This document shows, piece by piece, positions 678 to 19,028 of a DNA stretch of 64,000 bases (positions are counted from its first letter, which is position 1; each line of letters opens with the position of its first letter). Below the pieces are notes generated by a model. That model did not search any database and had not been told where the DNA came from. It saw nothing but the letters and a program-made list of their open reading frames with translations. Position numbers and translations under genes: made by a program. Source of the DNA: Escherichia phage CMSTMSU; the sequence record MH494197.1; one strand, written 5' to 3'.

Positions 678-706
678 TTGACAAGTGCATCCAGTACTGG
701 CATAAT
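678..706 (+). promoter_or_regulatory. sigma70-type promoter, plus strand (TTGACA-17-CATAAT)
   Basis: Hexamers at 678-683 and 701-706 with CAGTACTG in the spacer; no ORF of 60 aa or more downstream before hairpin at 784-817. Confidence 0.45.
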
Positions 707-783
707 TACTACATCAAGACGAAACAGTCACTAACCCACCGGGTGCATAGATCCGTCTATTAAATGATTCAGTACTGAAAAGT

Positions 784-817
784 AACGGGAGTTATTATCT
801 CCCCGTTGTTATTTTGT
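784..817. terminator. hairpin terminator, probably bidirectional
   Basis: ACGGGAG-TTATTAT-CTCCCCGT stem-loop flanked by T/A runs; follows minus-strand ORF 909..1013 and a short plus-strand transcript. Confidence 0.45.
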
Positions 818-908
818 GGTATAAACAGAAGTCGCCTTTATTTGCTACGCCGCCAGTGTAACGCGAGGAATAGTCACCCGACTTCTGCTATTACCAGTGT
901 ATCATCAT

Positions 909-1013
909 TCAATTCGCGCAAACGGCTGGATCTTGTACGCCGATTTTGTCGGCATGTTCCCGCATAGATTTAACCAGTGCTTCCAGTTGGGAAAGAGTAG
1001 TGATATTAGCCAT
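909..1013 (-). CDS. small hypothetical protein (34 aa)
   Basis: Minus-strand ATG directly downstream of promoter 1063..1090; translates MANITTLSQLEALVKSMREHADKIGVQDPAVCAN; below ORF-track length cutoff. Confidence 0.3.
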   Translation of the reverse strand: MANITTLSQLEALVKSMREHADKIGVQDPAVCAN

Positions 1014-1062
1014 TGTATTTTCTCATTACCGTGGAGAACCATTTCTCCCTTTGATGTAAAAC

Positions 1063-1090
1063 ATTATACAGTACTGAAAACTAATTGCAA
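1063..1090 (-). promoter_or_regulatory. sigma70-type early promoter (minus: TTGCAA-16-TATAAT)
   Basis: Plus-strand ATTATA at 1063-1068 and TTGCAA at 1085-1090; followed on the transcript by conserved leader hairpin GGAGAA..TTCTCC. Confidence 0.55.
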
Positions 1091-1097
1091 GTACTTT

Positions 1098-1355
1098 TTA
1101 ATATTGTTTGTCGTCGTCTTCCTCGATGAATTGACCGACGAAATGATCTACTTTCGCTTTGAGGCTTTTATAATCTTCTTCTACTTCCTTTAAACGTTCC
1201 GTAGTATTCCAGTGCCTCAACATATGCGGCCTCAGCCGTTTTCTCACGCATAGCTAAATTCATTCCACGCGTTTCATCAAATAGCCAAAACCATCGGTGC
1301 ATTCACTGATAGACAATGATTTGTTTAACACATTGTACTTTATTACTTTACTCAT
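1098..1355 (-). CDS. hypothetical protein, frame breaks
   Basis: Minus-strand ATG at 1355 after promoter 1405..1432; translates MSKVIKYNVLNKSL...; continues in shifted frames to stop near 1098. Confidence 0.3.
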
Positions 1356-1404
1356 TAGATAACCTCAGTAAAGGCGGGAACTATTACCCGCCTCGATGTA
1401 AAGT

Positions 1405-1432
1405 ATTATACGCTTTTAAACTTAGTTTGCAA
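1405..1432 (-). promoter_or_regulatory. sigma70-type early promoter (minus: TTGCAA-16-TATAAT)
   Basis: Same conserved element; followed by leader hairpin GGCGGGTAATAGTTCCCGCC. Confidence 0.55.
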
Positions 1433-1443
1433 GTACTTTTAAA

Positions 1444-2034
1444 TTAATATTCGATTGATTCTACTACGCCATCAATAACATTGAATTGATACTCGTTTCA
1501 ATCAGTGCCGTAATGTTTTCCAGTAGTGAATTGATCCTCATATGCATTCTCTAAATCACGGTACAACTTGCGGGACAATTCACGAATAGTGTCAGTGAGT
1601 AGTTCCTCAAGCTCATTAACTAACGTTTTTGTTTTGCGGTTAAATCCAGTGTAAGCCGATTCAATGTACCCGCTTACAGTATTCTTGAGTAGTGGGAGTG
1701 CGAACGCTTTACACTCATCGCCAAACCATCTTCATTCAGCAAGTGACGGATTGAGCGATTAGTTAATGCTTTACCTTGCGTAAAACTTCACTGCGTCAAC
1801 GTGGTCAGTACTGATTGATGCACCGTCCCCGGGACCAAAAGCCACTGAATCGTAAATCAGCGTCATTAATGCCATATTCCGGTAGTACTGTTTCAGTATT
1901 CATTTCACTTTCAGAAAAATAATCATCGTTTAAGTTTTTTCACGTTCCCGAACCAGTTCGATAGCTGACGTTTGTTGTTCTGCGTTCAATTCAGAAAAAT
2001 CCATAACGAAAGTAGTAGTAGTGATAGTTTTCAT
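1444..2034 (-). CDS. hypothetical protein (~195 aa), several frame breaks
   Basis: Minus-strand ATG at 2034 behind GAGGG; N-terminus MKTITTTTFVMDFSELNAEQQ; open frames continue in alternating frames to about 1444. Confidence 0.3.
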
Positions 2035-2171
2035 TTTGTAACCCTCATTCAGTAGTTGATGTAAGTATTATACGCTTTAAAAACGTCAAACTATTTTATC
2101 AGGGAGTTTTGTGCCTATTCCTCGGCTACTTAACGGAAGTTACTTATTTGTTCCCCGTCCTGATGTAAAAC

Positions 2172-2199
2172 ATTATACGCCTTTAAACATAGTTTGCAA
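2172..2199 (-). promoter_or_regulatory. sigma70-type early promoter (minus: TTGCAA-16-TATAAT)
   Basis: Conserved element copy. Confidence 0.5.
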
Positions 2200-2241
2200 G
2201 TACTTTTAAAAATAGTTTTCAGTACTGAATATTAAAAAGTA

Positions 2242-2269
2242 TTGACAGCATTATCAGTACTAATATAAT
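2242..2269 (+). promoter_or_regulatory. sigma70-type promoter, plus strand (TTGACA-16-TATAAT)
   Basis: Consensus hexamers; CAGTACT in spacer; a 40-codon Cys-rich ORF (MTTANPRCNCNCN...) follows. Confidence 0.45.
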
Positions 2270-2695
2270 TCCCATGACAACAGCTAACCCACGGTGCAAT
2301 TGTAACTGTAATAAACTTTTTCTAGATACACTTCCGCACCCTATGGGCTACGGCTTATCTGCCAATGAATACATTATGCCAGTACTGACAAAATAAGTCA
2401 ATACCGGCAATTGTAAAGATTTGTAAACTGCTTATACTGCAATCGCGTCCGTGCTATAATAATAATAAGTGCTATGGTGTGACTTACCTTTTATTTCAGT
2501 ACTGAATGAATCCGAACGATTTGCATATGATGTTAATTTAAAGTACTTTGATTTGTTGATACGTTACACCACAGATCCGCGTAAGTAGTTTTATTAGTGG
2601 TAGTATCTTTACGGTTTTAACTTCAGTCATATACATATTAGTCATTTTTATTACTCCGAGTTATAGGGGAACTATTCCCGCTCTCGATGTAAAAC

Positions 2696-2723
2696 ATTAT
2701 ACGCTTTTAAACTTAGTTTGCAA
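2696..2723 (-). promoter_or_regulatory. sigma70-type early promoter (minus: TTGCAA-16-TATAAT)
   Basis: Conserved element copy; followed by leader hairpin GGGAATAGTTCCCC and a 35-codon ORF (MTNMYMTEVKTVK...). Confidence 0.55.
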
Positions 2724-2750
2724 GTACTTTTATTCAAGTACTGCAATCTT

Positions 2751-2991
2751 TTAGTACGGTACACGGTCACGCGGTTGCTTTCGGTCGAGCTTTATTTCTA
2801 CCACTCGACGCGATACACTATCAGGACTTTTCAACGCCGCTAACCAGTACTGTAATGATCTGGCTGTACTACGCTTTACAATGGCCCAACGTTTACCACG
2901 TTCCGATTGTACGCCCATATCTTTAAACGTTGCCCGTCCGGCGTGCTGCGATCCGAGCTTGTTCACGCGTCGCAAAATACTTAATATTCAT
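2751..2991 (-). CDS. hypothetical basic protein in a locally GC-richer segment
   Basis: Track ORF 2751..2975 plus upstream ATG at 2991 (MNIKYFATREQARIAARRTGN...) joined by one frame break; Arg/Lys-rich. Confidence 0.4.
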
Positions 2992-3347
2992 GTTGTTCTT
3001 ATCGTTGGTGTATGAATAAACACTATTATAAAGTACTATCATCGTGCAATAGTACTTTAAATCTATTCTATTACATTCCAACCATTGCAGCACGGATCGA
3101 TAGTGCTATATTTGAATCCGTCCGGTGTTTTTCTTGTCCAGTCTGTTCTAAAAAATAACATCATATGACGGGCCGCATCATTGCGATTAGTGCTATCGTT
3201 AATAAAGTCCCAACTGGTATAATGATTCATCGTTATTAATCCAAAGGCTTACATTCCAATGAGTTTTGTTTTTGTGACCTAAGAACATTTTGATTTAGCC
3301 ATTTTTAATCTTATATAGTGGGGAACTATTTCACCCTGATGTAAAAC

Positions 3348-3375
3348 ATTATACGCTTTTAAACTTAGTTTGCAA
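3348..3375 (-). promoter_or_regulatory. sigma70-type early promoter (minus: TTGCAA-16-TATAAT)
   Basis: Conserved element copy; followed by GGGTGAAATAGTTCCCC leader. Confidence 0.55.
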
Positions 3376-3576
3376 CTTTATTAAACTTATTTGTAATTTT
3401 GCACTGTCAGCCCATACTGTGAAACGATGCATATTATCCCATGCATCTTGTTTTAAATTTAAACTGTGCAATTCCTCAGTAGTTGCTATCCCCATTGGCT
3501 TACTACACACCGCGAAATTTTTCTCCATGTACTGATAAACCATCGTTAAATCATTTGAGATCATTACATGGATCAT
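3349..3576 (-). CDS. hypothetical protein (75 aa)
   Basis: Track ORF on the early strand; a 47-codon ORF (3599..3742) upstream may be the same gene split by a frame break. Confidence 0.35.
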   Translation of the reverse strand: MIHVMISNDLTMVYQYMEKNFAVCSKPMGIATTEELHSLNLKQDAWDNMHRFTVWADSAKLQISLIKLQTKFKSV

Positions 3577-3774
3577 TGAATCAGCTATGAAGTAGCGTAT
3601 TGTTCACGCACGGCAACGGTTCCCGATAAGCTGTAAATGTGAATTTTACAGTTTCAGCCGGAAGACCTTTCATTTCACGGAAGTTAACCGTGTTAAGCAT
3701 GATTTTATTGATTTGAGTCGCCATCGTTTTAATCTCTTAATGTAGCGGGAAGTGTTCCTGCCTCGATGTAAAAC

Positions 3775-3799
3775 ATTATACGCTTTTATCAGTATGCAA
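3775..3799 (-). promoter_or_regulatory. sigma70-type early promoter variant (13-bp spacer)
   Basis: Conserved GATGTAAAACATTATACGCTTTT element with ATGCAA in place of TTGCAA. Confidence 0.35.
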
Positions 3800-4063
3800 G
3801 TACTTTCTACAAATACTTTTAAAATAGTTTTCTCTATATAGGGAACTATTATTCAGTACTGCAACCATCCGTGGGAACTATCTTTCTATAGTAGTACTAT
3901 TATTCAGTACTGAATCAATCCACCAAATCATCCTGATACCCGTAAAACGGCCTCAGACGCATTCTAACGCATTAATACACCTAAGCTATACATTTGCACC
4001 ATTCCAATCTTGGCTGGGCCGTTTAAACGCGTTAAATTATTTTCAATTATTTTGTTTTAGCTA

Positions 4064-4090
4064 TTGACTCAGTACTAAAAAGCGTATAAT
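4064..4090 (+). promoter_or_regulatory. sigma70-type promoter, plus strand (TTGACT-15-TATAAT)
   Basis: Consensus hexamers; downstream transcript has 9-bp inverted repeat AGGGTGCGG...CCGCACCCT and no long ORF. Confidence 0.45.
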
Positions 4091-4096
4091 TACACA

Positions 4097-4270
4097 TAGA
4101 CGCGAGAAAGGAAACCAGAGGGTGCGGAATTACGCCCAAAATTCAAGATATAAAAAAAGGATACACCGCACCCTAGCAGGTTAACGCACTTTCTAGTACT
4201 GAAATATAGTAACATAGTCCGCTGATAGCAAGCAATTAAAACTTTTTCATCCGGTATTGCTTTATTTTTC
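4097..4270 (+). ncRNA. candidate small RNA
   Basis: No ORF between promoter 4064..4090 and stem AGCAAT..ATTGCT followed by TTATTTTT; contains TACGCCCAAAATTC motif. Confidence 0.2.
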
Positions 4271-4284
4271 CAGTACTGTATAAT
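4257..4284 (+). promoter_or_regulatory. promoter, plus strand (TTGCTT-16-TATAAT)
   Basis: ATTGCTTTA upstream also matches my recollection of the T4 MotA-box core; TATAAT at 4279-4284. Confidence 0.4.
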
Positions 4285-4379
4285 AGTTCCATCGTCGAGA
4301 AAGACTCAGCCCACCGTATAGTTACGCCCAAAATTCAGTACTGAAAATTTTAAAAATATCCGTCCGTGCGCGTTGTTCC

Positions 4380-4640
4380 CCCAGTTTATAAGATAATGAT
4401 TCCAGACTCCAGAACGGTTCATCCCACGCGGTAGGGGAACTATTGGAAAACAAAATAAAATTTTGATTTAGCCGTCTATACTTCCAGACGTGTAACCATC
4501 TAGCCGTTTAGCTGTCCAAACGTCAGCCATCCAGCCATCCAGAAATCTAGCCGTTTAGCCGTCCAGATGGATAGCCATTTCCAGACTTCTGAGGGCTAGA
4601 CATATCTACGTCCAAAATCCATCCGTGGTAACTACGCCCA
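4380..4640. repeat. cluster of short direct repeats (TCCAGA; TAGCCGTTTAGCYGTCCA)
   Basis: TCCAGA five times and TAGCCGTTTAGC(C/T)GTCCA twice in ~200 bp; locally GC-richer; no ORF. Confidence 0.5.
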
Positions 4641-4949
4641 AAATCCGTCAGTACTATACCATAGATCATCTTTGGAGTATTCAGTACTGCCATCAGCCCC
4701 TCACATGTTACCCTAGGAGGATGAAGATCACCGCGGTACTGAATACTGTTAGAGGGAATCCACCAGCTTGGTGGTATAATCGTTTAGATTAAAATCAGTA
4801 CTGACACCATTCTGTTAATATCAGTACTGTTATTGATTTTCATATGAGGTTCAAAAAGATGTACCCACCACAGGAGGAACTATCTTTTCTGTACTGTCTC
4901 ACAGGAGGTAGAGTAAATGAATCGTTCGCAACTCATCTCTATGTAGAAC

Positions 4950-4977
4950 ATTATACAGTACTGAATCATAATGTCAA
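4950..4977 (-). promoter_or_regulatory. sigma70-type early promoter (minus: TTGACA-16-TATAAT)
   Basis: Matches the conserved early promoter element; transcript runs leftward into the ORF-free repeat region. Confidence 0.5.
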
Positions 4978-5189
4978 TAGCTTTCTTTCATTATTCAGTA
5001 CTGATATTCTTGAGAACTACCCGACTACAAACATCATTATATCCCACAAATCATAAACGTCCCAACGTAAATTTCAACTTTCGAAGATCCAACTTTATTT
5101 CATAGGTACTCCAAAATTTTAGGATCGAGATTTAGGATGGAGTACTAACCAACTTTTGCTGAGCTCTGGATATTAAGGTGAAAGTAATA

Positions 5190-5500
5190 ATTCAGTAATT
5201 AATCATTGGTGATTACTTTTGATTACATTTGATGTAATTTGCAAAATGGAAAAGGAGCTTGAAACTAGTACGGCAGACTTCCTCTGCCTACTAGGTGCTG
5301 GTTTCATCTATCGGAGGGAAATGGATTAACCTTAGCAATACGTAACTGAATACGTTCTTGATTAAACGTGCACATTCCTGTACTCTATTACACTCTAGTA
5401 CACTCTAGTACTCAATACTGATCACTACAATGATTATAAATGATTACTTAAATGTTTATATATGATTACTTATGACTACATATGATTAGGGTTTACTGGG
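5190..5500. repeat. TGATTAC short-repeat cluster with adjacent direct repeat
   Basis: TGATTAC recurs about seven times in two sub-clusters; TACACTCTAGTAC is duplicated in tandem at 5390-5415. Confidence 0.4.
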
Positions 5501-5816
5501 AGAATCTAGTGATCGCATTTGTCCAGCTGAATTTTAACATATATAACATATGTTAAAGCCTGTCCAATGCTTCTGCGGAGCTTCTGTCTATATGTTGAAT
5601 TACTTCCTATATATAAGCATTAACATATAGTAGTACTGATTATGCTGTACATTCTCTTTAATATTATAAGGGTCTATAGCAATCTCGGTACATCTGTTAA
5701 ATGCATATCTATTAAATGCCAGTACTATTATAGATCTAATCCATGCTTGGTCAGTCGGTGGTAGTTTACTTATATAGTACTCTTTATAGTTTTTATGTTC
5801 TGCATAGTATACCTTA

Positions 5817-5996
5817 TTATTTCAAAGTACCATATAGTACTCTTAATAGGAAGTAGTACGTATTAGAGATATCATTACTAGTTAAAACAATCTTTGTACA
5901 CATATTAAATTCGTATTGAGTCATTGCTGGGATTAAATTGTTAACCCATGCTTGTTCGTTTTCTTTGAGTTTACTTATATAGAAGTCTTTATACAT
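5817..5996 (-). CDS. small-ORF array member
   Basis: Translates MYKDFYISKLKENEQAWVNNLIP...; below ORF-track cutoff; degenerate copies lie further left. Confidence 0.35.
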   Translation of the reverse strand: MYKDFYISKLKENEQAWVNNLIPAMTQYEFNMCTKIVLTSNDISNTYYFLLRVLYGTLK

Positions 5997-6228
5997 AGTA
6001 TTATCTCTATTAATATGATAGTACTAGTGTTAGTACTGAGCACAATTGTTCTTTATAGTTCTTAGGGTATATAGAATCTTTTATGCACTCATTGAAGTGC
6101 CATAGGTATAATCTTGGGTCGCATTCTTTATATATTTTACGCCATAGGTATATATCTTGGGTCGCATTCTTTATATATTTTTTACGGGGACGAATGTTAG
6201 TTTTCTTATATAGAAGTCTTTGTGTTCT

Positions 6229-6438
6229 TTATTCATATAGGAATAGTATACCTATGATGCCTGAGTACATGTTAGTACTGTTATTATTGGCGTTTGCGTT
6301 TAAAGTCATTTGAATACAATTGTTGTAGCATAATCTGCCGAAATATGTATCAGTACTTAAAGGTGCAGTAGTCCTTAGAAACATTTGTTCTGTGGGGCTG
6401 AGGTGTTTGGAGTAGAATTCTTTATGTTCATTATTCAT
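6229..6438 (-). CDS. small-ORF array member (69 aa)
   Basis: Track ORF MNNEHKEFYSKHLSPTEQMFLR...; close paralogue of 7020..7226; start overlaps upstream stop. Confidence 0.5.
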   Translation of the reverse strand: MNNEHKEFYSKHLSPTEQMFLRTTAPLSTDTYFGRLCYNNCIQMTLNANANNNSTNMYSGIIGILFLYE

Positions 6439-6634
6439 AGATATATAGGAGTGCCATTATGTTGGAGTATAGTTTATTGTTGTCATTTTCTTGCAGTGCT
6501 TGTATAGTACTACGTATACAGTTATTATAGCATATTTTTGTGAAATTATTTTGTAATTTCATTTTCATTGGTTTTGCTTTATAGAATGATTGTTTTGTGG
6601 GACTAAGATGATTTATGTAGAACTCTTTATACAT
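6431..6634 (-). CDS. small-ORF array member (67 aa)
   Basis: Track ORF MYKEFYINHLSPTKQ...; shares CYNNCIR and C-terminal hydrophobic YE motif with neighbours. Confidence 0.5.
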   Translation of the reverse strand: MYKEFYINHLSPTKQSFYKAKPMKMKLQNNFTKICYNNCIRSTIQALQENDNNKLYSNIMALLYIYE

Positions 6635-6651
6635 GTTAGTACCTTAGTGCT

Positions 6652-6837
6652 TTAGTGTCTGTATATAAGTAATAGTAAGAATACGTACTGCACCTGTTCA
6701 TCTTTAGTATTGAGTACTGTACGTATTGCGTCATTAAACAAAAATATAGTACTTGGGTCATTAGAATTTAAGGGGTTTACGGGGACGGCGTGTTTGTAGT
6801 TCCCTTTAACAAATTGTATATAGTATTCTCTATGCAT
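6652..6837 (-). CDS. small-ORF array member (61 aa)
   Basis: Track ORF MHREYYIQFVKGNYK... Confidence 0.45.
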   Translation of the reverse strand: MHREYYIQFVKGNYKHAVPVNPLNSNDPSTIFLFNDAIRTVLNTKDEQVQYVFLLLLIYRH

Positions 6838-6838
6838 A

Positions 6839-7027
6839 TCAGTACCTATATATTAGGGCGAGAATGTAGTACAGTTCATATGGAATGTAATTTGGGGTGA
6901 TAGCACACTGTGTATGGTAAATGAATTGTTGGGTATTTTTCTTATCCTTGATATCTATTGGGTTTAGTGGTATAAGCATTTGGGAGTTTAGTTCCAGATG
7001 GTTTAAGTAGAATTCTTTGTTATTCAT
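6839..7027 (-). CDS. small-ORF array member (62 aa)
   Basis: Track ORF MNNKEFYLNHLELNSQ... Confidence 0.45.
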   Translation of the reverse strand: MNNKEFYLNHLELNSQMLIPLNPIDIKDKKNTQQFIYHTQCAITPNYIPYELYYILALIYRY

Positions 7028-7226
7028 AGAAGAATATTAGTCCCATTACGCCTGAGTACTGAATATTTTTGTTATTGTTTTCTAAAGCTTCTAGAGTAAT
7101 ACGTATACAATTATTAAAGCAATCTCTGGCGTGTGGTGTATCTAAACGTAAAGGTGATACACTCCTTAGAAACATTTGTTCTGATGCACTGAGGTGTTTG
7201 GTGTAGAATTCTTTCTGTTCGTTCAT
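7020..7226 (-). CDS. small-ORF array member (68 aa)
   Basis: Track ORF MNEQKEFYTKHLSASEQMFLR...; AAGAGG 6 nt upstream of ATG; paralogue of 6229..6438. Confidence 0.55.
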   Translation of the reverse strand: MNEQKEFYTKHLSASEQMFLRSVSPLRLDTPHARDCFNNCIRITLEALENNNKNIQYSGVMGLIFFYE

Positions 7227-7236
7227 ATTGGCCTCT

Positions 7237-7425
7237 TTAGTACACGAAAGCTAGGTACAGTGTATGATACAGTACTCGATGATAGCTATCAAAATCTAGT
7301 ATACATGCTTTAGTGCACATAGTAAAGTACACTTTATCGTTTTGAGCATTGATACCGCGAGGTTTATCTAATAGATTAGTACTGAGGTACATTGGGAAAT
7401 ATTTTGTGTAGTATTCTTTATGCAT
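7237..7425 (-). CDS. small-ORF array member
   Basis: Track ORF 7237..7470 trimmed to internal Met giving family-type start MHKEYYTKYF. Confidence 0.45.
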   Translation of the reverse strand: MHKEYYTKYFPMYLSTNLLDKPRGINAQNDKVYFTMCTKACILDFDSYHRVLYHTLYLAFVY

Positions 7426-7807
7426 ATTAGTACCTGAATATAAGTAGGATAGTGTTATATAATTGGTCATAGCTACTACTATTTTCTATACTGCGTTCTA
7501 TGCAATTATTGAATCCCAGTACTGCCAAATCGTTATCCGGGGGACTTTATATCTGGCGTAGTGTTCAAATATACTGGGAGAAATTGTGTGTAGTATTCTT
7601 TGTGCATATTAGTACCTATATATTAGTAAAAGGATGTGATACAGTACTCGATTATAGTCTTCAATATATATCGAGGATTTAGTGCACTGAATGAAGTAGT
7701 CTTTTTCGTAGTTTTTTCTATACCCAATGGTTCTGTTGGTAGAAGGTGTTGGAGATACATTGGGAGTTTCTCTATGTAGTATTCTTTGTGGTTATTCATA
7801 TTATGTG

Positions 7808-7981
7808 TTATTTCGTGAAAACAAGGGTTAGTACTGCATAGTACAAGTCATACGTATCTTTAGGGTTAATAGCACCTTTAATACATTCTTTCATTACTTC
7901 ATTATAGATAATTTTAGTACTGAATGTATTGGATGTTACTATATCGGAATTAAGGTACGAGAGGTAGAATTCTTTATACAT
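7808..7981 (-). CDS. small-ORF array member
   Basis: Track ORF 7808..8044 trimmed to internal Met giving MYKEFYLSYL; longer form also possible. Confidence 0.4.
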   Translation of the reverse strand: MYKEFYLSYLNSDIVTSNTFSTKIIYNEVMKECIKGAINPKDTYDLYYAVLTLVFTK

Positions 7982-8080
7982 AGTTTGAAATATACGTAAT
8001 GAGGTGATGAAATTTCTTATCAGTACTGATAAGTTCCTGTACATGTTTTGTTAGTTTGTACGCGTTTTATAGAGTCCGGA

Positions 8081-8458
8081 TTATCGATTACAGTACTGTA
8101 CATGAATAGATCTTCTTCTGATAATTCTTTGCCGGTAATTCTTTGAGGAATTGCAGTACTGTATCAGTTTCGTTAGTACGTTGCTTTTGGAAGAAGTGCA
8201 TGTTATCGTGTATTTTTCTGAACCCATGCAGTACATATCTCCGATTTGGAATTGTGCAGTACTGATATCATGGGTGCTATTACAATTCCCGAAGAAGTAT
8301 ACATTCCCGAAAGATAGAATTATAGTGCACGGGATATTATCCATGTGTATATAGATAGATGCATTCTTTAGTGCTTTTGTGCTGGTATTAGTACTCAATA
8401 CTTTTAAATCAGTATTATAGATATTAATAAAAGCAAGAGCTATATTATTTTTCTTCAA
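8081..8458 (-). CDS. hypothetical protein inside the array (125 aa)
   Basis: Track ORF only; lacks the family motif and is low-complexity. Confidence 0.2.
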   Translation of the reverse strand: MKKNNIALAFINIYNTDLKVLSTNTSTKALKNASIYIHMDNIPCTIILSFGNVYFFGNCNSTHDISTAQFQIGDMYCMGSEKYTITCTSSKSNVLTKLIQYCNSSKNYRQRIIRRRSIHVQYCNR

Positions 8459-9207
8459 GTACGATTTGAGGTTCTTAGATACGAGAACATTTCTGGATTT
8501 TTCTTTTTATTTCGTTTCTTTAGTATATTCGGGTGATACGTATAAGATGATGTAACTGATTCTGCTTGAATACTGTTGAGGTATTTAAAGTGCTTAAGGT
8601 ATTGTTTGCTGTGTGCATTAAGTTTCATTTGGTTTCCTTTATACAGATGCGAGTGCGAGGATTTCCCTGAAGGGATTATCTTTTGTTAGTGCGTGATGAA
8701 TGCAGCTATTGAGATTAATATTTTTAGTACTGTTAGTTGCCGTTGTAGTACTTCACGAAGGTGTCGTACATGAAACGGTCTTTAATGCTTATGTGTTCTA
8801 TATAGTATTCTTGCATATTATTCCTTACATAGAGATGAGTTTCAGTACATCAATATACATATAACGTTCAGATGACTGTACACGGGTAGTGATAATCTCA
8901 ATCGATATATTTTAATTCCATGTGCAGATGATTGATGGTGCTGAATAAATGAGTTGTGCATACTTTGTTCTATGTGGTTTAGTTTATTGAAGTAGTACTC
9001 AAAAGTGTTCATGTCTACCTTAGATTGAGATTAGTTTAAGTACTTCTCTGTATGTGTACTTTTCGTTTTGTGCTTCTACTGTACATGATAGTAGGTATCG
9101 TTTTTTATCTCTTTTGTTCCCGACTGTGTAGTACCTTTGGAATTTATTATAGTTGTATCTATCTTTGTGCTGGAGTTTATAGATATAGAATTCTTGCATA
9201 GAGTACC

Positions 9208-9393
9208 TTAGATTGCTATCAGTTTCAGTACTTCAATATATGTGCGGTACTCTGCTTTAATTAAATTTGTACACACTGTAAGGGAATTTCTTTGTATAAG
9301 TTTATTGCCGCTTTTATACGCATTTCTCCACACATAGAGATGAGATCTTTCAGGCATAGATAGTTTATTTGTATAGTACTCAAATGTATTCAT
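9208..9393 (-). CDS. small-ORF array member (61 aa)
   Basis: Track ORF MNTFEYYTNKLSMPERSHL...; similar broken copy at about 8990. Confidence 0.45.
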   Translation of the reverse strand: MNTFEYYTNKLSMPERSHLYVWRNAYKSGNKLIQRNSLTVCTNLIKAEYRTYIEVLKLIAI

Positions 9394-9995
9394 ATATTAC
9401 CTCAAATAGAGATTAGTTTAAGTACTTCTCTGTATGTGTACTTTTCGTTTTGTGCATCTCTTGTGCTTGTATATAGGTATCCTCGACGATATTTGTTGCT
9501 CCCGTTCTTGTAGTTGAATTCGAACTTATTGTAGATGAATCTATCGCCGCTGTAATTTACTTAAGTACAATTCAATGCTCATAGTATTCTCTTTACATAT
9601 CAATAAGTTTCAGTACTGCTCTGTACGTGTACTTAGTTGTTAGTGCTTCTTTATAGCAATACAGAAGTAATGTTGTTTGTCTCTTATACTACCGCGTTTG
9701 TAGTACCATACATTGGAGTTGTGGGTGTACTTGTCCCTGTCGGATAGATTTTGGTAATAGTATAATATATGATTCATGGTAATGTAATTAGCCTTATTAT
9801 GTTAAAGTACTCGGTCCCCGTACACCTTGTAGAATATTATCAACTACATTTTCTTGGTGCAGGATTAATACATTCGGTGCGGTTCTTTTAAGGTTTTTAA
9901 AGTACTGTATTCTTGTTTAAGGATGAACTGTACATCTTTAGGGAGAATATCTAAGTAGTACTGGTGTATGTTCATAGTTTTCATATAGTACTCTT

Positions 9996-10181
9996 TTAGA
10001 ACTTAAAGATGAGGTTCATGATAGATAAGTACTTAGTTTCAGGAAATTGATGTTCTATTGCATAACGTGTCTCCAGTCTGAAGTCAAATTTATAAAAGGG
10101 ACTATTCATATCCATAGGTTCATTGGGAAATGAATCTCTGTATTGTTTGTGCAGCTTACTACAGTAGAATTCTTTATACAT
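9996..10181 (-). CDS. small-ORF array member (61 aa)
   Basis: Track ORF MYKEFYCSKLHKQYR... Confidence 0.45.
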   Translation of the reverse strand: MYKEFYCSKLHKQYRDSFPNEPMDMNSPFYKFDFRLETRYAIEHQFPETKYLSIMNLIFKF

Positions 10182-10182
10182 A

Positions 10183-10395
10183 TTAGTGCTCGATTAAAAG
10201 GGTTAGGATGTAATAGTATTGCATACTTTCTACCCCTTGTACAGCATTTCTTATTTTATTATTCCTGTACGAGTTCAAGAGTTTAGGACAATGTTTGAAG
10301 TTTATATAATTATTTTGTGTATACAGTAGGCTTTCTCGTAGACCTTTTGTTGGTAGTGCATCGATGTAGTACTGTTCAATGTTCATAGTGTTCAT
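10183..10395 (-). CDS. small-ORF array member, first unit (70 aa)
   Basis: Track ORF MNTMNIEQYYIDALPTKG...; abuts 9996..10181. Confidence 0.4.
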   Translation of the reverse strand: MNTMNIEQYYIDALPTKGLRESLLYTQNNYINFKHCPKLLNSYRNNKIRNAVQGVESMQYYYILTLLIEH

Positions 10396-10719
10396 AGAGC
10401 TACCAGTACTAAGATTTTTGATAATTGTTTGTTTCTATCCCGCAGATGTTGTTGTGTAAAATGCTCACTACAAGGGTATCAAGTGCATTGTTCAGCATAA
10501 GGTTACATCCAGTACTGTTATATTTTTTAGCTCAATTAGCCACGAACAATCCGCGAGAAATTTCCCGTACTCTAGTTCATTTAGCGTATTAATGTAGTAC
10601 TTAAGTGCATTTGTCATGTACAGTTCTCCTTATATTCCTTCTATAGTACATCAGTACTGAAAGGTTGTCAAGGGTTTTCTTTTTGGGGTAAATATGATAT
10701 AATGAATAAAGGAGGAAAT

Positions 10720-11866
10720 ATGTTACCTTTTGTAAGAATGGTTAAGTACGGGAATATTGCACCAGTACCGAAAAAATAAAGAAAGTTATAGCAGGATATG
10801 ATAATTTATATGTACTATATGGTGATGGTTCGCTATATGGTTGTGGAATCAATAACTATCAACAGTTAAATATTGATGGAACTGCTACACAAAATAATTG
10901 GGTACTAATTACCAATGGTGTTAGTAATGCATGGGCTGGTGGATACAATATTTTATATTTGAAAGAAGATAAATTTATAATGCACGGAACTAATGTCTCA
11001 TTAGGTTTAGGAAATACTACAATTCCATTAGGTGGAGTAGATGTAACTTCTTCATTCCCAGATATCTCTAATATTAAAATGATATCCATTGGTTTTGATT
11101 CAATGCACTATGTTAGTGCTGATGGTACAACTGTATATGGAAGAGGTATGAACACAAATGGTTCTGTTGGTTCAGGTAGTACTTACTCACAGAGTACTTT
11201 CACTTCAGTACTGAATAATGGAACTAATCAGGTTATTGATATATTTGGTAACGTTAATAATACAGTGCTTCTAACATCGAATGGTGAGCTTCGAGCATGT
11301 GGGACAAGTGCTTATGGTTCTATAGGAAATGAAACTGGTAAGTGGACATCGTTTGGTTTAAAATTATCTGGCACTAAAATAATGGGTGGTAATGGGTATA
11401 GTACGCTTGCATATACAAATTCGGGAATGTACCACTCAGGGTGGCAGTTAAATGGGGAACTAGGAAATGGTTTAGATACTAACGTACAGGTATATCCATT
11501 TCAATTTAACTCTAAAACGATAGATAGCAAGATAGATAAAATTGCCAAATCATCATCTGGGTCATATGTTAACATGTACTCAACAACAGAAGGAAAGATA
11601 TATACGACAGGTTCGTTTGGTAAAACGGGTCAACTACTGCATTGAATTTGTTCACCAATACATTAACACTTATAAATTACAATCCAGATACCGCCTCGTT
11701 GTATACGTGCACAAACTTCAGTGTTGTGTATGATGGTAATGAAACTATTGCTGTAAGTGGTAGTCCTACATATGTACCGAGGGCGTTGCCGCTAATAGAT
11801 GGACTACAATTCCATTACCCAAGTAATACTATGCCAGTACTTGATGCTGGCTTTTCTTTTGATTAA
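10720..11866 (+). CDS. leader-tagged RCC1-like repeat protein F1 (frame breaks)
   Basis: AAGGAGG then ATG; N-terminus MLPFVRMVKYGN; stop after 19 codons at an A-run (10766-10772), one extra A restores a reading colinear with paralogue 24753..25907; body = track ORFs 10959..11645 and 11642..11866. Confidence 0.7.
11833..11860 (+). terminator. intrinsic terminator between F1 and F2
   Basis: Hairpin GCCAGTA-CTTGA-TGCTGGC followed by TTTTCTTTT; same element recurs after most array genes. Confidence 0.6.
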
Positions 11867-11893
11867 ATATAGTATAATGAATAAGGAGGAATT

Positions 11894-13017
11894 ATGTTAC
11901 CTTTTGTTAGAATGTTTGATTATGGGAATATAATCGAAGTTAATAATATAAAGAAAAGTGTTGTTAGTTACACTCTTGAAATGTTTCTAATGCAAGATGG
12001 CACTGTATATGCACACGGTGAAGATTCAAACTATAATGCGGGTTTAAGTACACAGTTTGTATCGTTAGGAGCAGTTCAACAAATCACAACTGAAGTTGAT
12101 GACTTATGGTTAGGATCGTTTTCCGTTGTTATTAAAGGTGATAAAATATATGGTTCAGGTTCAACATATGCATTCACGAATTCTAATACTTTCCAACAAG
12201 GATATACTGACTGGGCTGTGTATTTCACTGGTATAGATGTTACCCAAATTAAAAAATGTTATGTGGTTATACAGCATTTATATTAATGAAAGACGGAACA
12301 CTTTATGGAAGAGGATGGAATCGAAGTGGTACATTAGGTTTAGGACATAAAAATTATGTTTCAGCGTGGACTGTACTTGACACTAATGTGGATAATATAT
12401 TTGGCGGTTACCTTGGCGATACATTGTTTAAGATTAAAAACGATGGAACTGTATATGGTTCAGGTTCAAATAACAGCTTTCAAGTTAAAGCAACATCGGG
12501 TGATGCAACCACATTTGTTCCGTTGTTTGATGATATATCTTATGATATAAAATGCAGTTTTGTTTCTGGTGTTGGTTTTGTAATGATAACATCTGATAAT
12601 AAAATATATGCAACTGGAACTACTTTTGCTGGTAGTGGTGCACATAGTAAAGTTTTTGATGTTGGTTTTACTATAGGTGATATGAGTAATATATATCATC
12701 CTGATTCGTTGGACTATTCGACTAGTGTTGTATTTTTAATTAATGCAGATACAAACAAACTAATAGCAACTGGGCATACCCATTTACGGAAGTAGTTCAA
12801 GTTCCTTCCATATTTTACAGCATTTCAAGAATTCAATTTTACATCGTTCAATTCGAATACACGATATAGTGGGTCTTTATACTGGAATACATTTTACGAA
12901 GGTAATAATGTATGGATGAATGGATATAATCCTGAAAATACGGGTGGAAAGAATTTCTCATTGTGTTCAATACCGTTAGATACTATTATTACTAAGCAAA
13001 TTGATTTACCTTTTTGA
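11894..13017 (+). CDS. leader-tagged RCC1-like repeat protein F2 (frame breaks)
   Basis: Track ORFs 11894..12286 and 12256..12795 plus tail; N-terminus MLPFVRMFDYGN; C-terminus ...TKQIDLPF matches ...FTKIDLPK of F7. Confidence 0.7.
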
Positions 13018-13087
13018 ATACTATGCCAGTACTCAAGTACTGGCTTTTATTTTATTAAATATAGTATAATGAATAAAGGAGGGAAAT

Positions 13088-14273
13088 ATGTTACCTTTTG
13101 CAAGAATGGTTAAGTACGGGAATAAACAGCCTATTCCTGAACCAGTTGAGTTCACTGATGTTTTACAGCAACATTATACTAATGCTATGTATCTACATAA
13201 GCCCACGAATACACTATACGGTTATGGTGGTAATAACTTGAGCCAATTAGGTCTAGGGAATCAATCGACAGTTTCTACTTTTACAGTACTGGCAACGCAC
13301 TGTGCAGCCTTTTGGTTAGGCGTTCATGGCTCATTGATGATTGACTTGGATAATAGAATATATTTCACAGGGAATACAGTAGCATTCCCCGATTATGGAG
13401 ATGCAACTCCAGTTAATGGTTATTTTAGAACATGGACTGATGTTACTGCCGCATTTGACAAAATAAATGTACACGCTAATTTAATCAAGAGTGTACATAT
13501 AGGTGAAAGTACTAGAATATTACTACACGATGGAAGAGTAGTTGTTTGTGGTAAAATGCAAATGCCGAATGTGGAACAGGTAACCAAAATCCCATACCAG
13601 TACTAACAGTTGTTACTGGTATGGGTGAAGTTCTCAATTGGCGTGTTCATTACAGGGTACGCACTATCTCAAAACAAATAAAGAAGCATGGTTTTGTGGT
13701 AAGGATAACTTTGGTGAAAGTGGTGCTGGGACTAGCTCATACGTTTTACTAATAAGTTAATACGATCCAACGTCGATTATATAAGTGCTACTTATGATGT
13801 TACGGTGGTTCACTGCCGGTAGGGTGTACTGGAGTGGTAGAAACAATTCTGGACAAGCTGGGAATGGTACTACTTCAACCACAAACCAATTAACTACAGT
13901 TCAGAATTCACAGGTTATAGTGAATATTAGTGATGGTTTCCTGTGTCCTAGTAATATGGGTAACTCAACAATTGGTGCACCTATGGCTCAATACCCATCA
14001 TATGTCAGAGTGCAGGCATCAATACATATGGTCAAGAAGGGACGGAAATACAACAGTAATTACTTCGTGGGGGCGTTTTCTTTAAGTGCGATACAGGGTG
14101 GATATGACAATGTTCTTATGGCATCCAAAGACTGGTCCAGAACAATAATTATAACTAAAGATTATAAATTATATGCATGTGGGGGCTTTAACGGTTCAGG
14201 TGGTAACTTACCGGATGGTACTTCCGTAATTAAAACATTAACATTAATGCCAACGCAGTTATGGCAATCATAG
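13088..14273 (+). CDS. leader-tagged RCC1-like repeat protein F3 (frame breaks)
   Basis: Track ORFs 13088..13606 and 13785..14273; N-terminus MLPFARMVKYGN; repeats of type YGxGxNxxGQLG. Confidence 0.7.
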
Positions 14274-14282
14274 GAGAAAATC

Positions 14283-15404
14283 ATGTTACCTTTTGTTAGA
14301 ATGTTTGATTATGGAAATGAAGCACCTGATCCTAGTTCGGGATTTCGAATAATAAGTACAGGAGACGCATTACTATTAATTACTAAGAGTGGTGATTTGT
14401 GGGTGCGTGGTTATAACCGTTATGGCAAGTTAGGTATAGGTAATAACACCACTACCTATGTACTTGATTGGACGAAGGTTAGAAGTGATGTAAAGTTTGC
14501 GTGTGGTAGTGGATTGGTAACAGTTATCTTTACTAAGGGTAATCGCATATTGTACTGTGGTGACAAATGGTTTGAAACGGGTGGTGTTGGTAGTGCACAG
14601 ATTTTCACATGGACAGATGTTACGCACCAATTTGGGGCAGTAGATTTGAGTACAGTAAGGGATATGAAAATGTCTTATTACACGATTGGATTATTGACTA
14701 CTAATAATCAATTATACGCTAAGGGATATGATAATAACCTATCATTTGGTGGGGTTAGTAATAAGGCGACTGCTGTGTTTATTGCGAATAATGTACAAGA
14801 GTTGTATACGAGTTTAGTTAGTACAATCTACGTTGATACAAGTGGTATATTACATCGTTGTGGCATGAGTGATAACGGTTCGTTGGGTAATAATGTTAAT
14901 TTAACTTCGTATCTAAGTTATTCACAGACTGGTATGACGATTAAGGACATTGGAATGATGACTACGAACACTGGGTTATTATATACTGATTCTAGTGCAC
15001 GCACGAGATATTTTATTGCTGGACAGAACTTGAATAAACAGATGGGTAATGCGGCGGCTGCGAGTGCCATTACGAGTACTTACACAGAGCTTTCTGGTAG
15101 TGTTGATAAGTTTTCTTCTTTATGGGCGAATGATGGGATATTGATGACATTTGCTGTGGGTAAGAACACTAATCAGTTATTTTATGCTGGGATGAATACT
15201 TTTCATGCGAGTGGTGGTGTATCTTCATATGCGGATACATATGAGTTAGTCCCGATGGTGTTTAATGACATACAGGAAGTGTTATGTGCACAGCGTTTAT
15301 CGGTGGTACATGATTCTACGAAGTGGTATTACTGTGGTGATGCTAATTCAATGTATGGTTTACCGGACGTAAGTACTTTTACTGAGTTACCGTTGCCCTT
15401 TTAA
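14283..15404 (+). CDS. leader-tagged RCC1-like repeat protein F4 (intact, 373 aa)
   Basis: Uninterrupted track ORF; N-terminus MLPFVRMFDYGN; GGAG upstream; about seven repeats of (D/N)GxhYxxGxNxxGxLG; starts 9 nt after F3 stop with no terminator. Confidence 0.85.
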   Translation: MLPFVRMFDYGNEAPDPSSGFRIISTGDALLLITKSGDLWVRGYNRYGKLGIGNNTTTYVLDWTKVRSDVKFACGSGLVTVIFTKGNRILYCGDKWFETGGVGSAQIFTWTDVTHQFGAVDLSTVRDMKMSYYTIGLLTTNNQLYAKGYDNNLSFGGVSNKATAVFIANNVQELYTSLVSTIYVDTSGILHRCGMSDNGSLGNNVNLTSYLSYSQTGMTIKDIGMMTTNTGLLYTDSSARTRYFIAGQNLNKQMGNAAAASAITSTYTELSGSVDKFSSLWANDGILMTFAVGKNTNQLFYAGMNTFHASGGVSSYADTYELVPMVFNDIQEVLCAQRLSVVHDSTKWYYCGDANSMYGLPDVSTFTELPLPF

Positions 15405-15412
15405 TAATAGGT

Positions 15413-15440
15413 CAGTACTGAAATATGTACTGGTATTTTT
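15413..15440 (+). terminator. intrinsic terminator after F4
   Basis: CAGTAC-TGAAATAT-GTACTG hairpin followed by GTATTTTT. Confidence 0.55.
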
Positions 15441-15476
15441 GTAAATACTATATAATTTAATTACGGAGATTTTATT

Positions 15477-16653
15477 ATGTTACCTTTTGTTAGAATGTTT
15501 GATTATGGGAACGTCGTTGAGCGACCTGTGGGTACACGTTATACCTGTAGTGACTATAGTGCGACTTATAGTTTAATAAAGGATGGTGTGTTATATGTAT
15601 CTGGGATGAATAACTATTATCAGTTAGGTAATAACACTAACGTAACACGTTACAACGAGTGGTTAAAAGTTCCAGAGACTGATAGTGTTAAGTTTTGTAG
15701 TACTGGTTATAGTCAGACAATGTATATTACTAACAATGGGAGGATAATGATAGCTGGTGAAGATCCTACTTCCAGTGCGACGGCGGTAAGTGTTAAGGTA
15801 TGGACTGATATAACTTCTAGATTTAGTGCAGTTGATACAAAGAAGATTGTTTATATTTCAATAGAACGCTTTGGTGTAATGATGATCATGCAAGATGGTT
15901 CAGTATGGGCGTGTGGAGTTGATAATACTGGTTGGAGTGGGCAGGAAGTAAAACTGTTGGTTTCTTTACTTTCAGACAAATATACACCGGAAGTGCAGGA
16001 AGTGCAGTTGCTGGTACTGCTGGTACTGGTACTGCGAGAATTCTGTTAGCTAATGGAACAATCTTGTCCGCTGGTACTAATACATATCATCAATGTAATG
16101 CTAGTACTGATCCGGCTGTTCTAACATTCACTGAATCATTCCACGGGTTGATCCTTCATTGATATATCAAATCAAGATGTGTAATAACAACTGTATTATA
16201 TTTTGAGTGATAAGAGATATTACGGTACTGGCTGGGAAGTTTTGGTGCATTGGGTGATGGTGATATTACGGGTTCGAATAATAAATTCTATGCAGGTACA
16301 TTGTCAGTTGCTCCTAAAACATGCGTGCTTATATGTCGTATCTATGTAGTTCTTCTGGGGATTCTAGTATGTACATAGGCGATGATAATTTCATATACAC
16401 CTGCGGTTATCGTGGGAGGAACTTAATAAATGCCACTACAGATATTGGTACGTTCACGAAATGCATTCAAAGTGCACAAGGATACAAGAATGGACTTATA
16501 TATAGTGGGAATTATTGTGCTGTAGTTTTTGATCCAGATTTGGGTTCAGGAATGTCATATGCGGTTTCATCACCAAAATTGAATGCACCAGCACCACAGG
16601 CGAGTGTTCCAACATTGGGTATGAGTTCGTTACAAGCTATTATTTTACCATAA
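15477..16653 (+). CDS. leader-tagged RCC1-like repeat protein F5 (frame breaks)
   Basis: Track ORFs 15477..16049, 15932..16162, 16321..16653; N-terminus MLPFVRMFDYGN; variant promoter TATATAAT and GGAG. Confidence 0.65.
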
Positions 16654-16736
16654 CATTATACCAGTACTGAAATATGTGCTGGTATTTTTTTAAATACATT
16701 ATAATTATTATATGGAGATTTTAGTTATGTTACCTT

Positions 16737-17851
16737 TTGTAAGAATGTTTGATTATGGGAATACAGTGGCTGCTCCCACTGGTATAAAGGATTTCAAGCA
16801 AATGGAAGCCACTGTATGGCACTAACATATAGTGGTGAGATGTGGGCTTATGGTACAAGTACAAGTGGATCAATGGGAACCGGATTCACGGTGGGTGCTG
16901 CTGATAAGGGTTGGTACAAGTCTAACATTAGTAATGTTAAATCATTCAGTTCTAATATGCAGACTAGCACAGTGGCTTTGACAAATGATGATAGAGTGCT
17001 AGTTTGTGGCTCAACTAGATTTGACAAATTCAGTACTCCAGATATTGCATCATCTAACCTTGATTGGTTGGATGTTACTGATCATATTCCACAGGAAGTT
17101 ATTGATGCTGGGATGAAGCAAGTTATTAACCACGTATATTATGTTGCCATTTTACTGAAAACAATCTATTATATAGTGTGGCATTATCTTTGGGTAATAC
17201 TAGTACTATAATAGATAGAACATGGAGAAGAAATACATTTGGTGATATACAAGTTGAACGTGTTGTTTCGTTGACACAAACCCCAAGTGGTCCTTTGTGT
17301 ATAGTTCAAGATGCAGACGGATACCAGTATGGTATTGGATATAATGGTAATAAGATTATTGATAATACTTCCACTAATTCATATTCTGTATATACCAAAA
17401 TGGGTACACTTCCTTACAATGAATTTGCCATATCGAATAGCGGGAAATTCAGTTCAGCGGTATTATCAGATGGGAGAAGTGTTTATAGTGGTACATTTCC
17501 AAAGTCATTCAATAATAGTTTTGGTTCATTTTGAAAGTTGGTGCGGTATCAGATACTGTGTTTGGTTTAGATGCAAAAATATGCGTGGTCAATATGGTCA
17601 AAATCAATTACCAATTGCGTCGGCTGATAACAATGCAAGTAATGGCGTTGTGAACCTTCGTAATGTTCCAGCGGGAACACAAACGAAAGACATTCGATTT
17701 ATATGCGGAAATGATGTAAAGAACGTTTATATCATATACACAAATGAAGACGGCATTAGCTCATTTTATGGATTGGGACCAAACTTTGATCAAAATTCCT
17801 CAACATATGCACAATTCGTCAAAGTGGATTTGCGGGGCATTATCAAATTAA
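16737..17851 (+). CDS. leader-tagged RCC1-like repeat protein F6 (frame breaks, 3' end approximate)
   Basis: ATG at 16737 after terminator 16661..16690; N-terminus MLPFVRMFDYGN then early stop; body = track ORFs 16816..17211, 17178..17534 and 5' part of 17311..18324. Confidence 0.6.
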
Positions 17852-17861
17852 GGAGAGAAAT

Positions 17862-18960: not shown

Positions 18961-18966
18961 CATAAT

Positions 18967-18993
18967 GCCAGTACTTGATACTGGCTTTTCTTT
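18967..18993 (+). terminator. intrinsic terminator after F7
   Basis: GCCAGTA-CTTGA-TACTGGC hairpin plus TTTTCTTTGG. Confidence 0.6.
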
Positions 18994-19000
18994 GGTTAAA

Positions 19001-19023
19001 TATAGTATAATGAATAAAGGAGG
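19001..19023 (+). promoter_or_regulatory. conserved array promoter/RBS module (-10 TATAAT at 19006-19011, AAGGAGG at 19017-19023)
   Basis: Block TTAAATATAGTATAATGAATAAAGGAGG nearly identical upstream of 12 of the 17 array genes; no convincing -35 hexamer. Confidence 0.5.
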
Positions 19024-19028
19024 GAATT

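Follow-up and report, generated by a model that had tools for sequence, protein, structure and literature searches.

The minus strand of a 64,000-nucleotide stretch of Escherichia phage CMSTMSU (sequence record MH494197.1; hereafter, the window) carries, at 5600–10617, an array of 22 head-to-tail units of one small-protein family (57–75 amino acids), with one unrelated gene of 219 amino acids (aa) in mid-array (Table 1). We are nearly certain that this array is a real coding multigene family under purifying selection. Our best explanation for it, to which we give an even chance of being correct, is an early operon of lineage-restricted four-helix paralogs that serve as host-takeover or anti-defence binders. 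A preliminary description of the window had reported about two dozen small paralogous genes in tandem on this strand at 5600–10400. Its count was close and its start was right, but the array reaches 10617 and the promoter 10671.

A coding multigene family on the minus strand

Each unit of this family, which we refer to as the KEFY family, is an open reading frame (ORF) of ~190 bp whose product begins with the pattern M-x(0-5)-[KR]-[ED]-[FY]-Y-x-x-x-L. From 36 intact homologues in phages WPEC5 and 121Q, we built a hidden Markov model (HMM) of the family. This model recovered every unit, and its matches in the window were confined to 5603–10629 on the minus strand, which confirms the tandem arrangement. 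At the DNA level, 5600–10400 is 97.8% identical to Escherichia phage WPEC5 across 91% of its length. The same region matched 33 phage records, all of them from Escherichia or Salmonella jumbo phages (310–384 kb) of the 121Q/PBECO4 group, genus Asteriusvirus.

Open frames of this length were said in the preliminary description to be unexpected by chance, and they are. The window has 16 minus-strand ORFs of at least 55 aa that begin with ATG, as compared to a mean of 0.95 (maximum of 5) in 1000 shuffles, or a ~16-fold excess. In the error-free sequence of WPEC5, the same count is 22 (0.99 in shuffles), and the opposite strand has two. The units are open in all nine of the relatives that we examined (15–21 units each), with none frameshifted or truncated; in the first six genomes surveyed, 106 of 106 ORFs were intact. 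The description had also taken the units for maintained protein-coding genes and had proposed that the ratio of nonsynonymous to synonymous substitution rates (dN/dS) be checked. The pooled dN/dS for sets of orthologs (by the method of Nei and Gojobori) is 0.20–0.52. Between WPEC5 and 121Q, 78 of 455 synonymous sites and 143 of 1870 nonsynonymous sites have changed, so that synonymous change is ~2.3 times as frequent per site and neutrality is rejected (chi-square p = 1e-9). Furthermore, the similarity between units is seen in protein and not in DNA.

Tandem Repeats Finder reported no array at the ~190-bp unit period, just a local 43-bp duplication, and we rejected a DNA-level tandem repeat for this reason. 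An array of structured RNAs was rejected as well, as scans of the region for tRNA, tmRNA, and Rfam families found none. The broader idea that the region is a non-coding DNA or RNA repeat with incidental open frames draws on the lack of a clear Shine-Dalgarno sequence (SD) in about half of the units (the Tandem Repeats Finder and Rfam/tRNA results were also listed on its side), but it is excluded for practical purposes by the one-stranded excess of ORFs, the preponderance of synonymous change, the similarity that is detectable in protein but not in DNA, and the confident protein fold that is predicted from the family alignment.

In the window itself, 12 of the 22 units are intact, nine have deletions of 1–2 nt, and one (U20) has a 43-bp tandem duplication. 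Long ORFs are strikingly scarce across the whole 64 kb. We considered an alternative genetic code as the cause and rejected it, as reassigning TGA or TAG does not bring long ORFs back; rather, the scarcity is due to indel errors. Where the window aligns to WPEC5 (4.1 kb, most of the array), all 18 gaps are deletions of 1–2 nt on the window's side, and they sit in homopolymers or at CCAGG/CCTGG sites. Shortened homopolymers and errors at Dcm-methylated CCWGG sites are typical of an uncorrected nanopore consensus. Given this pattern, the small frameshifts in the array look like long-read consensus errors, and none of the matching ORFs is broken in the nine relatives, which were sequenced independently. 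The region next to the array has 84 gap openings in 2.6 kb of alignment to WPEC5. More broadly, deletions of 1–5 nt relative to close relatives occur at homopolymers and CCWGG sites throughout the window (for example, at 1376–3861 and 6652–10755), and these systematic deletions break most of its genes, including the RCC1-like genes at 10.7–13.6 kb. An ORF-based reading of this window calls for a polished reference, and the window is an example of how uncorrected long-read errors can give a real gene array a ragged look. The duplication in U20 is different in kind: it comprises two tandem copies of 43 bp that are 97% identical (6099–6181), it shifts the frame, and it is missing from six relatives that carry U20. 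Either U20 has truly become a pseudogene in recent time, or the duplication is an artefact of the assembly.

Lineage-restricted proteins with a predicted four-helix fold

The paralogs are highly diverged, with a median identity of 26% (range 13–72%), and clustering at 70% identity sorted the units of nine phages and two metagenomic contigs into 57 types. The metagenomic contigs have arrays of 15 and 23 units, mostly of different types. This agrees with the earlier view of an old family. We considered a gradient of similarity between neighbours as a sign of recent local duplication, and it was weak: adjacent units are just marginally more alike than distant ones (0.28–0.31 versus ~0.25), which implies that most of the duplications are old.

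A dozen columns are conserved among paralogs: Y7 (which is invariant), L11, P24, F37, C40, I41, I45, Y54, L58, L60, I61, and Y64. Within helices, these columns are spaced 3–4 residues apart, as on buried helix faces. Each of the remaining columns differs in 82–96% of paralog pairs, as compared to 0–17% of pairs within ortholog groups. The preliminary description had singled out CxNNCI as a frequent internal motif. Its strict form is present in just three units, and the general form is [FY]-x-x-C-[IT]. An AlphaFold2 model of U15, made with a 30-sequence family alignment, has a mean predicted local distance difference test score (pLDDT) of 90 and a predicted template modelling score of 0.74, with helices at residues 2–9, 14–22, 31–49, and 53–65. 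Across 30 members, we found no membrane-spanning segment: the highest Kyte-Doolittle mean over 19 residues is 1.14 (median 0.51), and the usual cut-off is ~1.6. The products are predicted to be cytoplasmic four-helix proteins of ~7 kDa. Their isoelectric points (pI) range from 4.4 to 9.6, with U5–U8 forming a basic subfamily (pI 9.4–9.6), and 10.5% of their residues are tyrosine.

Four of the six small members that we tested match PHROG 11711 (function unknown) across its full 62-position profile (E = 4.8e-7 to 2.2e-24). This profile covers the KEFY...LIYRY subfamily, and the VLKLISI, MNIEQYY, and 75-aa subfamilies have no match in PHROG, so only some of the units belong to PHROG 11711. One family HMM unites all of these subfamilies, including those without a match in PHROG. 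Searches against Pfam gave chance-level matches and no helix-turn-helix (HTH) domain, and a sequence-profile search of the PDB gave no match. With the predicted structure as the query, Foldseek found no match in the PDB below E = 5, and a search of a library of viral structures returned only the family itself. A profile search of 1.84 billion representative proteins returned 36 clusters, all of 57–69 aa and all of the KEFY kind, and tblastn against 50,697 phage records found the family in Asteriusvirus only. Because the profile, structure, and tblastn searches return nothing beyond the family, we conclude that it is lineage-restricted and without detectable fold relatives.

Annotated orthologs exist in 121Q (gp249–265), PBECO4, phAPEC6 (gp540c–548c), and WPEC5 (CDS0073–0093), and all of them are called hypothetical proteins. 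Many GenBank records annotate just a third to a half of the genes in the array. A literature search for a description of the KEFY family found no paper.

The number of units varies among close relatives: 15 in SD-15_S21; 16 in 121Q; 17 in PBECO4 and G17; 18 in phAPEC6; 20 in WPEC5 and fEgEco12; 21 in EC.P1 and SHEFM2K; and 22 in the window. All nine phages share the first two units, the last unit, and core types 05, 10, 12, 13, 14, 16, and 17. Between the conserved units lie differing cassettes, and one type is placed differently in the two clades. At one extreme, the protein of the U13 type is 93–100% identical in 32 Asteriusvirus records. At the other, U18 has no DNA match among the nine relatives and its exact protein is missing from a collection of 15 billion proteins; judged by its sequence, U18 represents an allele or type not seen before in the family. 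The array proteins evolve faster than the neighbouring ones: dN/dS is 0.41–0.47 for the array (0.41 for the WPEC5–121Q pair). In the same pair, four neighbouring genes in the terminal repeat have values of 0–0.2, and the first RCC1-like gene has a value of 0.13.

A probable early operon and its possible roles

A sigma-70-type promoter lies upstream of U1 (Table 1), and between it and U1 is the SD TAAGGAG, at a distance of 8 nt from the ATG. We called this promoter from its match to the consensus and from its conservation. The -35 and -10 elements and the SD are invariant in 12 loci, from 10 phage genomes and two divergent metagenomic contigs; one of these contigs has a different family member as its first gene, and the other has a diverged spacer. 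The 20 junctions of WPEC5 comprise five overlaps (of 4 or 8 nt; ATGA or ATGAATAA), four gaps of 1 nt, and 11 gaps of 5–11 nt. In the longer gaps, the stop codon often forms part of a weak SD, such as TAAGGT. These junctions leave no space for internal promoters or terminators, so the array is presumably transcribed as a single mRNA of ~5 kb. In a consensus scan, internal promoter-like sites were not enriched (25, versus 35.6 in shuffles), and terminator motifs likewise showed no excess. The preliminary description had stated that most units lack an SD, which is about half right, as ~9 of 21 starts have an SD-like core (AGG, GAGG, or AAGG). It had also read the overlapping stop and start codons as a sign of translational coupling. 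Every junction overlaps or is at most 11 nt long, and we infer coupling from this packing.

The spacer of the promoter contains the palindrome CAGTACTG (8 bp), which is the commonest 8-mer in the window, with 52 copies versus ~1 expected (shuffle maximum of 5). It is densest at 692–5003. Copies in the array are at 7517, 8021, 8091, 8154, 8257, 9611, 10510, and 10652, and a 240-bp stretch of the 219-aa gene holds four of them. In relatives, the palindrome is just as dense in the terminal-repeat and array regions (1.3–2.7 copies per kb). Some copies sit between the -35 and -10 elements of TTGACA/TATAAT promoters, and many are within genes. The design TTGACA...CAGTACTG...TATAAT recurs ahead of other small minus-strand genes in the window. 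The palindrome could be a binding site for some factor; a search of the phage literature for it found no relevant mention.

In phage PA5oct, the terminal-repeat genes are early and the phage depends on the host RNA polymerase (PMC7318152). In phage CBB, RpoD-like promoters mark short early genes for host takeover, and late promoters have the sequence ATAAATA (PMC5259590). Given these relatives, the type of promoter, and a site beside the terminal repeat and its similarly driven small genes, the array would be transcribed early by the host RNA polymerase. Overall, the array is probably an early, translationally coupled operon.

Our preferred explanation is as follows. Shortly after the DNA enters the cell, host RNA polymerase with sigma-70 would start at the TTGACA-17-TACTAT promoter and produce a single mRNA of ~5 kb that spans the array. 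Ribosomes would load at the strong SD of U1 and re-initiate from gene to gene, either at weak SDs of which the preceding stop codon forms a part or where stop and start codons overlap. Each product would fold on a common hydrophobic core. With this core kept and nearly every other position varying from paralog to paralog, the surface may be different on each of them, and each would most likely act in host takeover or anti-defence by binding a host target of its own. Whole units would be gained, lost, and swapped by recombination between the conserved ends of units. That the products are directed at the host is speculative, and we put it somewhat below an even chance. Less likely again, at perhaps one chance in four, the array is a repertoire on a new four-helix scaffold of ~60 residues, in which ~20 co-expressed paralogs each neutralise a different host defence or factor. 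If so, the gain and loss of cassettes would help to set which strains of E. coli and Salmonella each phage infects, and the array would be to a bacterial virus what the terminal multigene families are to African swine fever virus (ASFV) and poxviruses.

Several points weigh against this explanation. The early timing rests on the resemblance of the promoter and on analogy with relatives in other genera, and our literature search found no transcriptome for Asteriusvirus. The dN/dS of the array is below 1, which falls short of diversifying selection, and relaxed constraint would yield such a value too. Across 30 genomes, some members hardly vary, which is as compatible with a fixed housekeeping role as with an arms race. 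The predicted fold matches nothing and therefore gives no functional lead, and PADLOC defence models gave chance-level matches in single members. In favour of the explanation, the table of virion proteins of phAPEC6 lists the RCC1-like gp549 and gp551, and not gp540c–548c, although a protein of 4.7 kDa was detected (PMC7247149). The array products are thus unlikely to be parts of the virion; this is weak evidence because half of the phAPEC6 units were never annotated (9 of 18 were).

Instead of acting separately on the host, the paralogs could be subunits of one hetero-oligomeric intracellular assembly that acts on the phage's own replication or assembly. Coupling would fix an equal stoichiometry, and the conserved N- and C-terminal helices would be a common packing interface. 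Tight coupling and a single promoter do predict near-equimolar synthesis, the conserved residues cluster in the first and last helices, the core types and their order are kept across phages, and the tyrosine content is unusually high. But 15–23 units of varying types, among phages that are ~90–98% identical here, fit a defined complex poorly; the spacing of the conserved residues in the model resembles the buried core of a monomer; and the products were not detected in virions. We consider such an assembly improbable.

We give the same low probability to small regulators of the phage's own programme, such as DNA-binding or RNA polymerase-binding proteins that tune the many early promoters. A similar role has been proposed for the ~35-copy expansion of zinc ribbons in phage G, and jumbo phages do show lineage-specific expansions of small putative transcription factors (PMC7824862). 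The over-represented palindrome, which lies inside early promoters that include the array's own, needs a protein to read it. In addition, the U5–U8 subfamily is basic.

Slightly less probable still is that most units are dispensable duplicates that fill spare headful capacity and drift under weak constraint. Hua et al. put forward tandem duplication as a way in which the genomes of jumbo phages expand, and they pointed to a large array in 121Q (PMC5646251). Also, the array's dN/dS is ~3 times that of the neighbouring genes, and units are freely gained and lost. However, there is no broken unit in the nine relatives, including the 106 ORFs of the first six genomes. dN/dS is significantly below 1, and the paralogs are old yet their types are well kept among orthologs, one of them (U13) nearly unchanged. 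Finally, the architecture persists in divergent metagenomic relatives.

Jumbo phages are under development for therapy, and ~80% of their genes have no known function. In every genome of Asteriusvirus the array occupies ~5 kb, and it is one of the regions that vary more from one close isolate to the next. Should the products be host-directed inhibitors, they would provide ~57 small, confidently modelled proteins to screen against the defence systems and essential machinery of E. coli, and the presence or absence of units could help to explain differences in host range among therapeutic candidates. In any case, the family is a clean natural example of how a tandem multigene family is maintained over the long term and turned over in a bacterial virus.

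Layout, surroundings, and related systems

The coordinates in Table 1 are those of WPEC5 genes projected through the alignment, and the remaining units were read directly.

Table 1. The promoter and genes of the array, in order of transcription. Positions are those of the window; lengths described as a type are those of the intact form.
Feature	Position	Strand	Length	Remarks
Promoter	10643–10671	-		Sigma-70 type, TTGACA-17 nt-TACTAT, upstream of U1; palindrome CAGTACTG in spacer
U1	10392–10617	-	75 aa	Type 01; two 1-nt deletions; intact in WPEC5 (10374–10601 of the WPEC5 locus)
U2	10183–10395	-	70 aa	Intact; start overlaps U1 stop (ATGA)
U3	9996–10181	-	61 aa	Intact
U4	9774–9984	-	70-aa type	Two 1-nt deletions, one at CCTGG
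U5	9593–9777	-	61-aa type	1-nt homopolymer deletion
U6	9402–9582	-	60-aa type	2-nt deletion at CCAGG
U7	9208–9393	-	61 aa	Intact
U8	9020–9199	-	59 aa	Intact
U9	8825–9012	-	62-aa type	1-nt homopolymer deletion
U10	8639–8816	-	59-aa type	2-nt deletion at CCAGG
219-aa gene	7974–8628	-	219 aa	PHROG 29152; not of the family; five deletions in window
U11	7808–7981	-	57 aa	Intact; start overlaps stop of 219-aa gene by 8 nt
U12	7609–7799	-	63-aa type	1-nt homopolymer deletion
U13	7427–7607	-	60-aa type	Two 1-nt deletions
U14	7237–7425	-	62 aa	Intact
U15	7020–7226	-	68 aa	Intact; sequence used for AlphaFold model
U16	6839–7027	-	62 aa	Intact; 8-nt overlap
U17	6652–6837	-	61 aa	Intact
U18	6431–6634	-	67 aa	Intact
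U19	6229–6438	-	69 aa	Intact; 8-nt overlap
U20	6010–6236	-	60-aa type	Type of 121Q gp264; disrupted by duplication
U21	5817–5996	-	59 aa	Intact
U22 (last)	5600–5805	-	68-aa type	1-nt deletion in A-run just past ATG

The 219-aa gene, whose PHROG is of unknown function, sits in mid-array in every relative, including the metagenomic ones. We asked if it might be a member of the family with an inserted domain, and rejected this (hhalign probability 0.2%, E = 0.29; family HMM E = 0.6). Its dN/dS in the WPEC5–121Q pair is 0.45, and its AlphaFold model is poor (pLDDT 57). The ~70 residues at its C-terminus have four predicted helices of 12, 7, 19, and 11 residues, as compared to 8, 9, 19, and 13 residues in the small family. 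Profile comparison finds no homology, and this likeness in predicted helix lengths could reflect a very old fusion or a coincidence.

The array lies just outside the terminal repeat of the genome. In G17, the direct terminal repeat spans 1–20,668 (20,668 bp) and the last array gene ends at 20,934. Phage fEgEco12 has the same arrangement, with a repeat of 20,993 bp (PMC13070987). By alignment to G17, the boundary of the repeat in the window is at ~5297, and ~0.3 kb separates it from the final stop codon of the array. An ORF-poor gap of ~1.3 kb (~4300–5600) separates the array from the terminal-repeat genes. Within it, the right boundary of the repeat adjoins the hairpin GGCAGACTTCCTCTGCC and is flanked by clusters of short repeats at 5200–5490 (GTAATCA-like ones and three copies of AGTGTACTAGAG), as well as by about nine copies of CAGTACTG. 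There is also a perfect TTGACA-16-TATAAT promoter at 4977–4950 with no obvious gene downstream. The gap could be a site of packaging or of end formation, or it could encode a small RNA.

Elsewhere in the window, a near-identical cassette, AAAAGGG-TTGACTTCGGTCAGCCCTTTTGCTATAAT, precedes small minus-strand genes, with promoters starting at 34683, 36651, 37367, 41818, 44848, and 48424. In this cassette, the -35 hexamer is inside a GC-rich hairpin that is followed by a run of T. From its sequence, it looks like a combined terminator and promoter, and like a second class of promoter apart from the class with CAGTACTG.

On the plus strand, at ~10720–28700, there is a tandem run of at least 10 diverged RCC1-like (beta-propeller) paralogs. 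Their transcription runs away from the small-gene array, and the two arrays start from one shared intergenic region of ~100 bp. G17 has a second tandem family of small proteins at 345,000–350,052 (52–87 aa, with at least 22 tightly overlapping copies and an LGTNYQE motif), just outside the other copy of the terminal repeat. We considered whether this was the same family, and rejected it because the KEFY HMM does not match; the LGTNYQE family is absent from the window. As the LGTNYQE array adjoins the other copy of the repeat, arrays of small paralogs bracket the terminal repeat on both sides in a concatemer map.

Clusters of host-takeover or pre-early genes are known from SPO1 (gp37–60, in the terminal redundancy), T5 (the pre-early genes), and T4 (small early ORFs). 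By analogy, and not by family membership, these modules would be the closest functional counterparts of the KEFY array. Like them, and like the early regions of the Rak2-like phages PA5oct and CBB (PMC7318152, PMC5259590), the array is a cluster of very small genes at or near a long terminal repeat, with a host-type sigma-70 promoter, products that appear not to be in the virion, and a presumed early action on the host. In the host-takeover modules, the genes are unrelated and most have a promoter and a terminator to themselves, whereas the KEFY array has one promoter and ~20 paralogs with a single predicted fold, and its early timing is inferred.

In its evolutionary behaviour, the array is closest to multigene families at the genome ends of large DNA viruses of eukaryotes, such as MGF110 and MGF360 of ASFV and the "genomic accordions" of poxviruses. 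Those families are also arrays of paralogs near the termini whose copy number varies between close isolates, and they have been linked to host range and immune evasion. The likeness is no more than an analogy: no homology exists, neither the viruses nor their hosts are related, and the proteins of ASFV and poxviruses are much larger and their genes are expressed individually.

Clusters of anti-CRISPR or other anti-defence genes resemble the array in that small, fold-orphan proteins with fast turnover are encoded back-to-back in one early operon. Anti-CRISPR loci encode unrelated proteins, usually together with an HTH regulator (Aca), whereas the KEFY array has no HTH that we could find and no match related to PADLOC models. 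Other arrays in giant phages, namely the zinc ribbons of phage G and the array that Hua et al. noted in 121Q, also consist of tandem paralogs that arose by duplication. Unlike the zinc ribbons, the KEFY proteins lack a zinc-binding motif and belong to a different family. The array noted by Hua et al. is probably the LGTNYQE family, because the KEFY family has just 16 quite dissimilar copies in 121Q. Overall, the KEFY array is an uncharacterised case of a familiar kind, the lineage-specific tandem expansion of small early phage genes.

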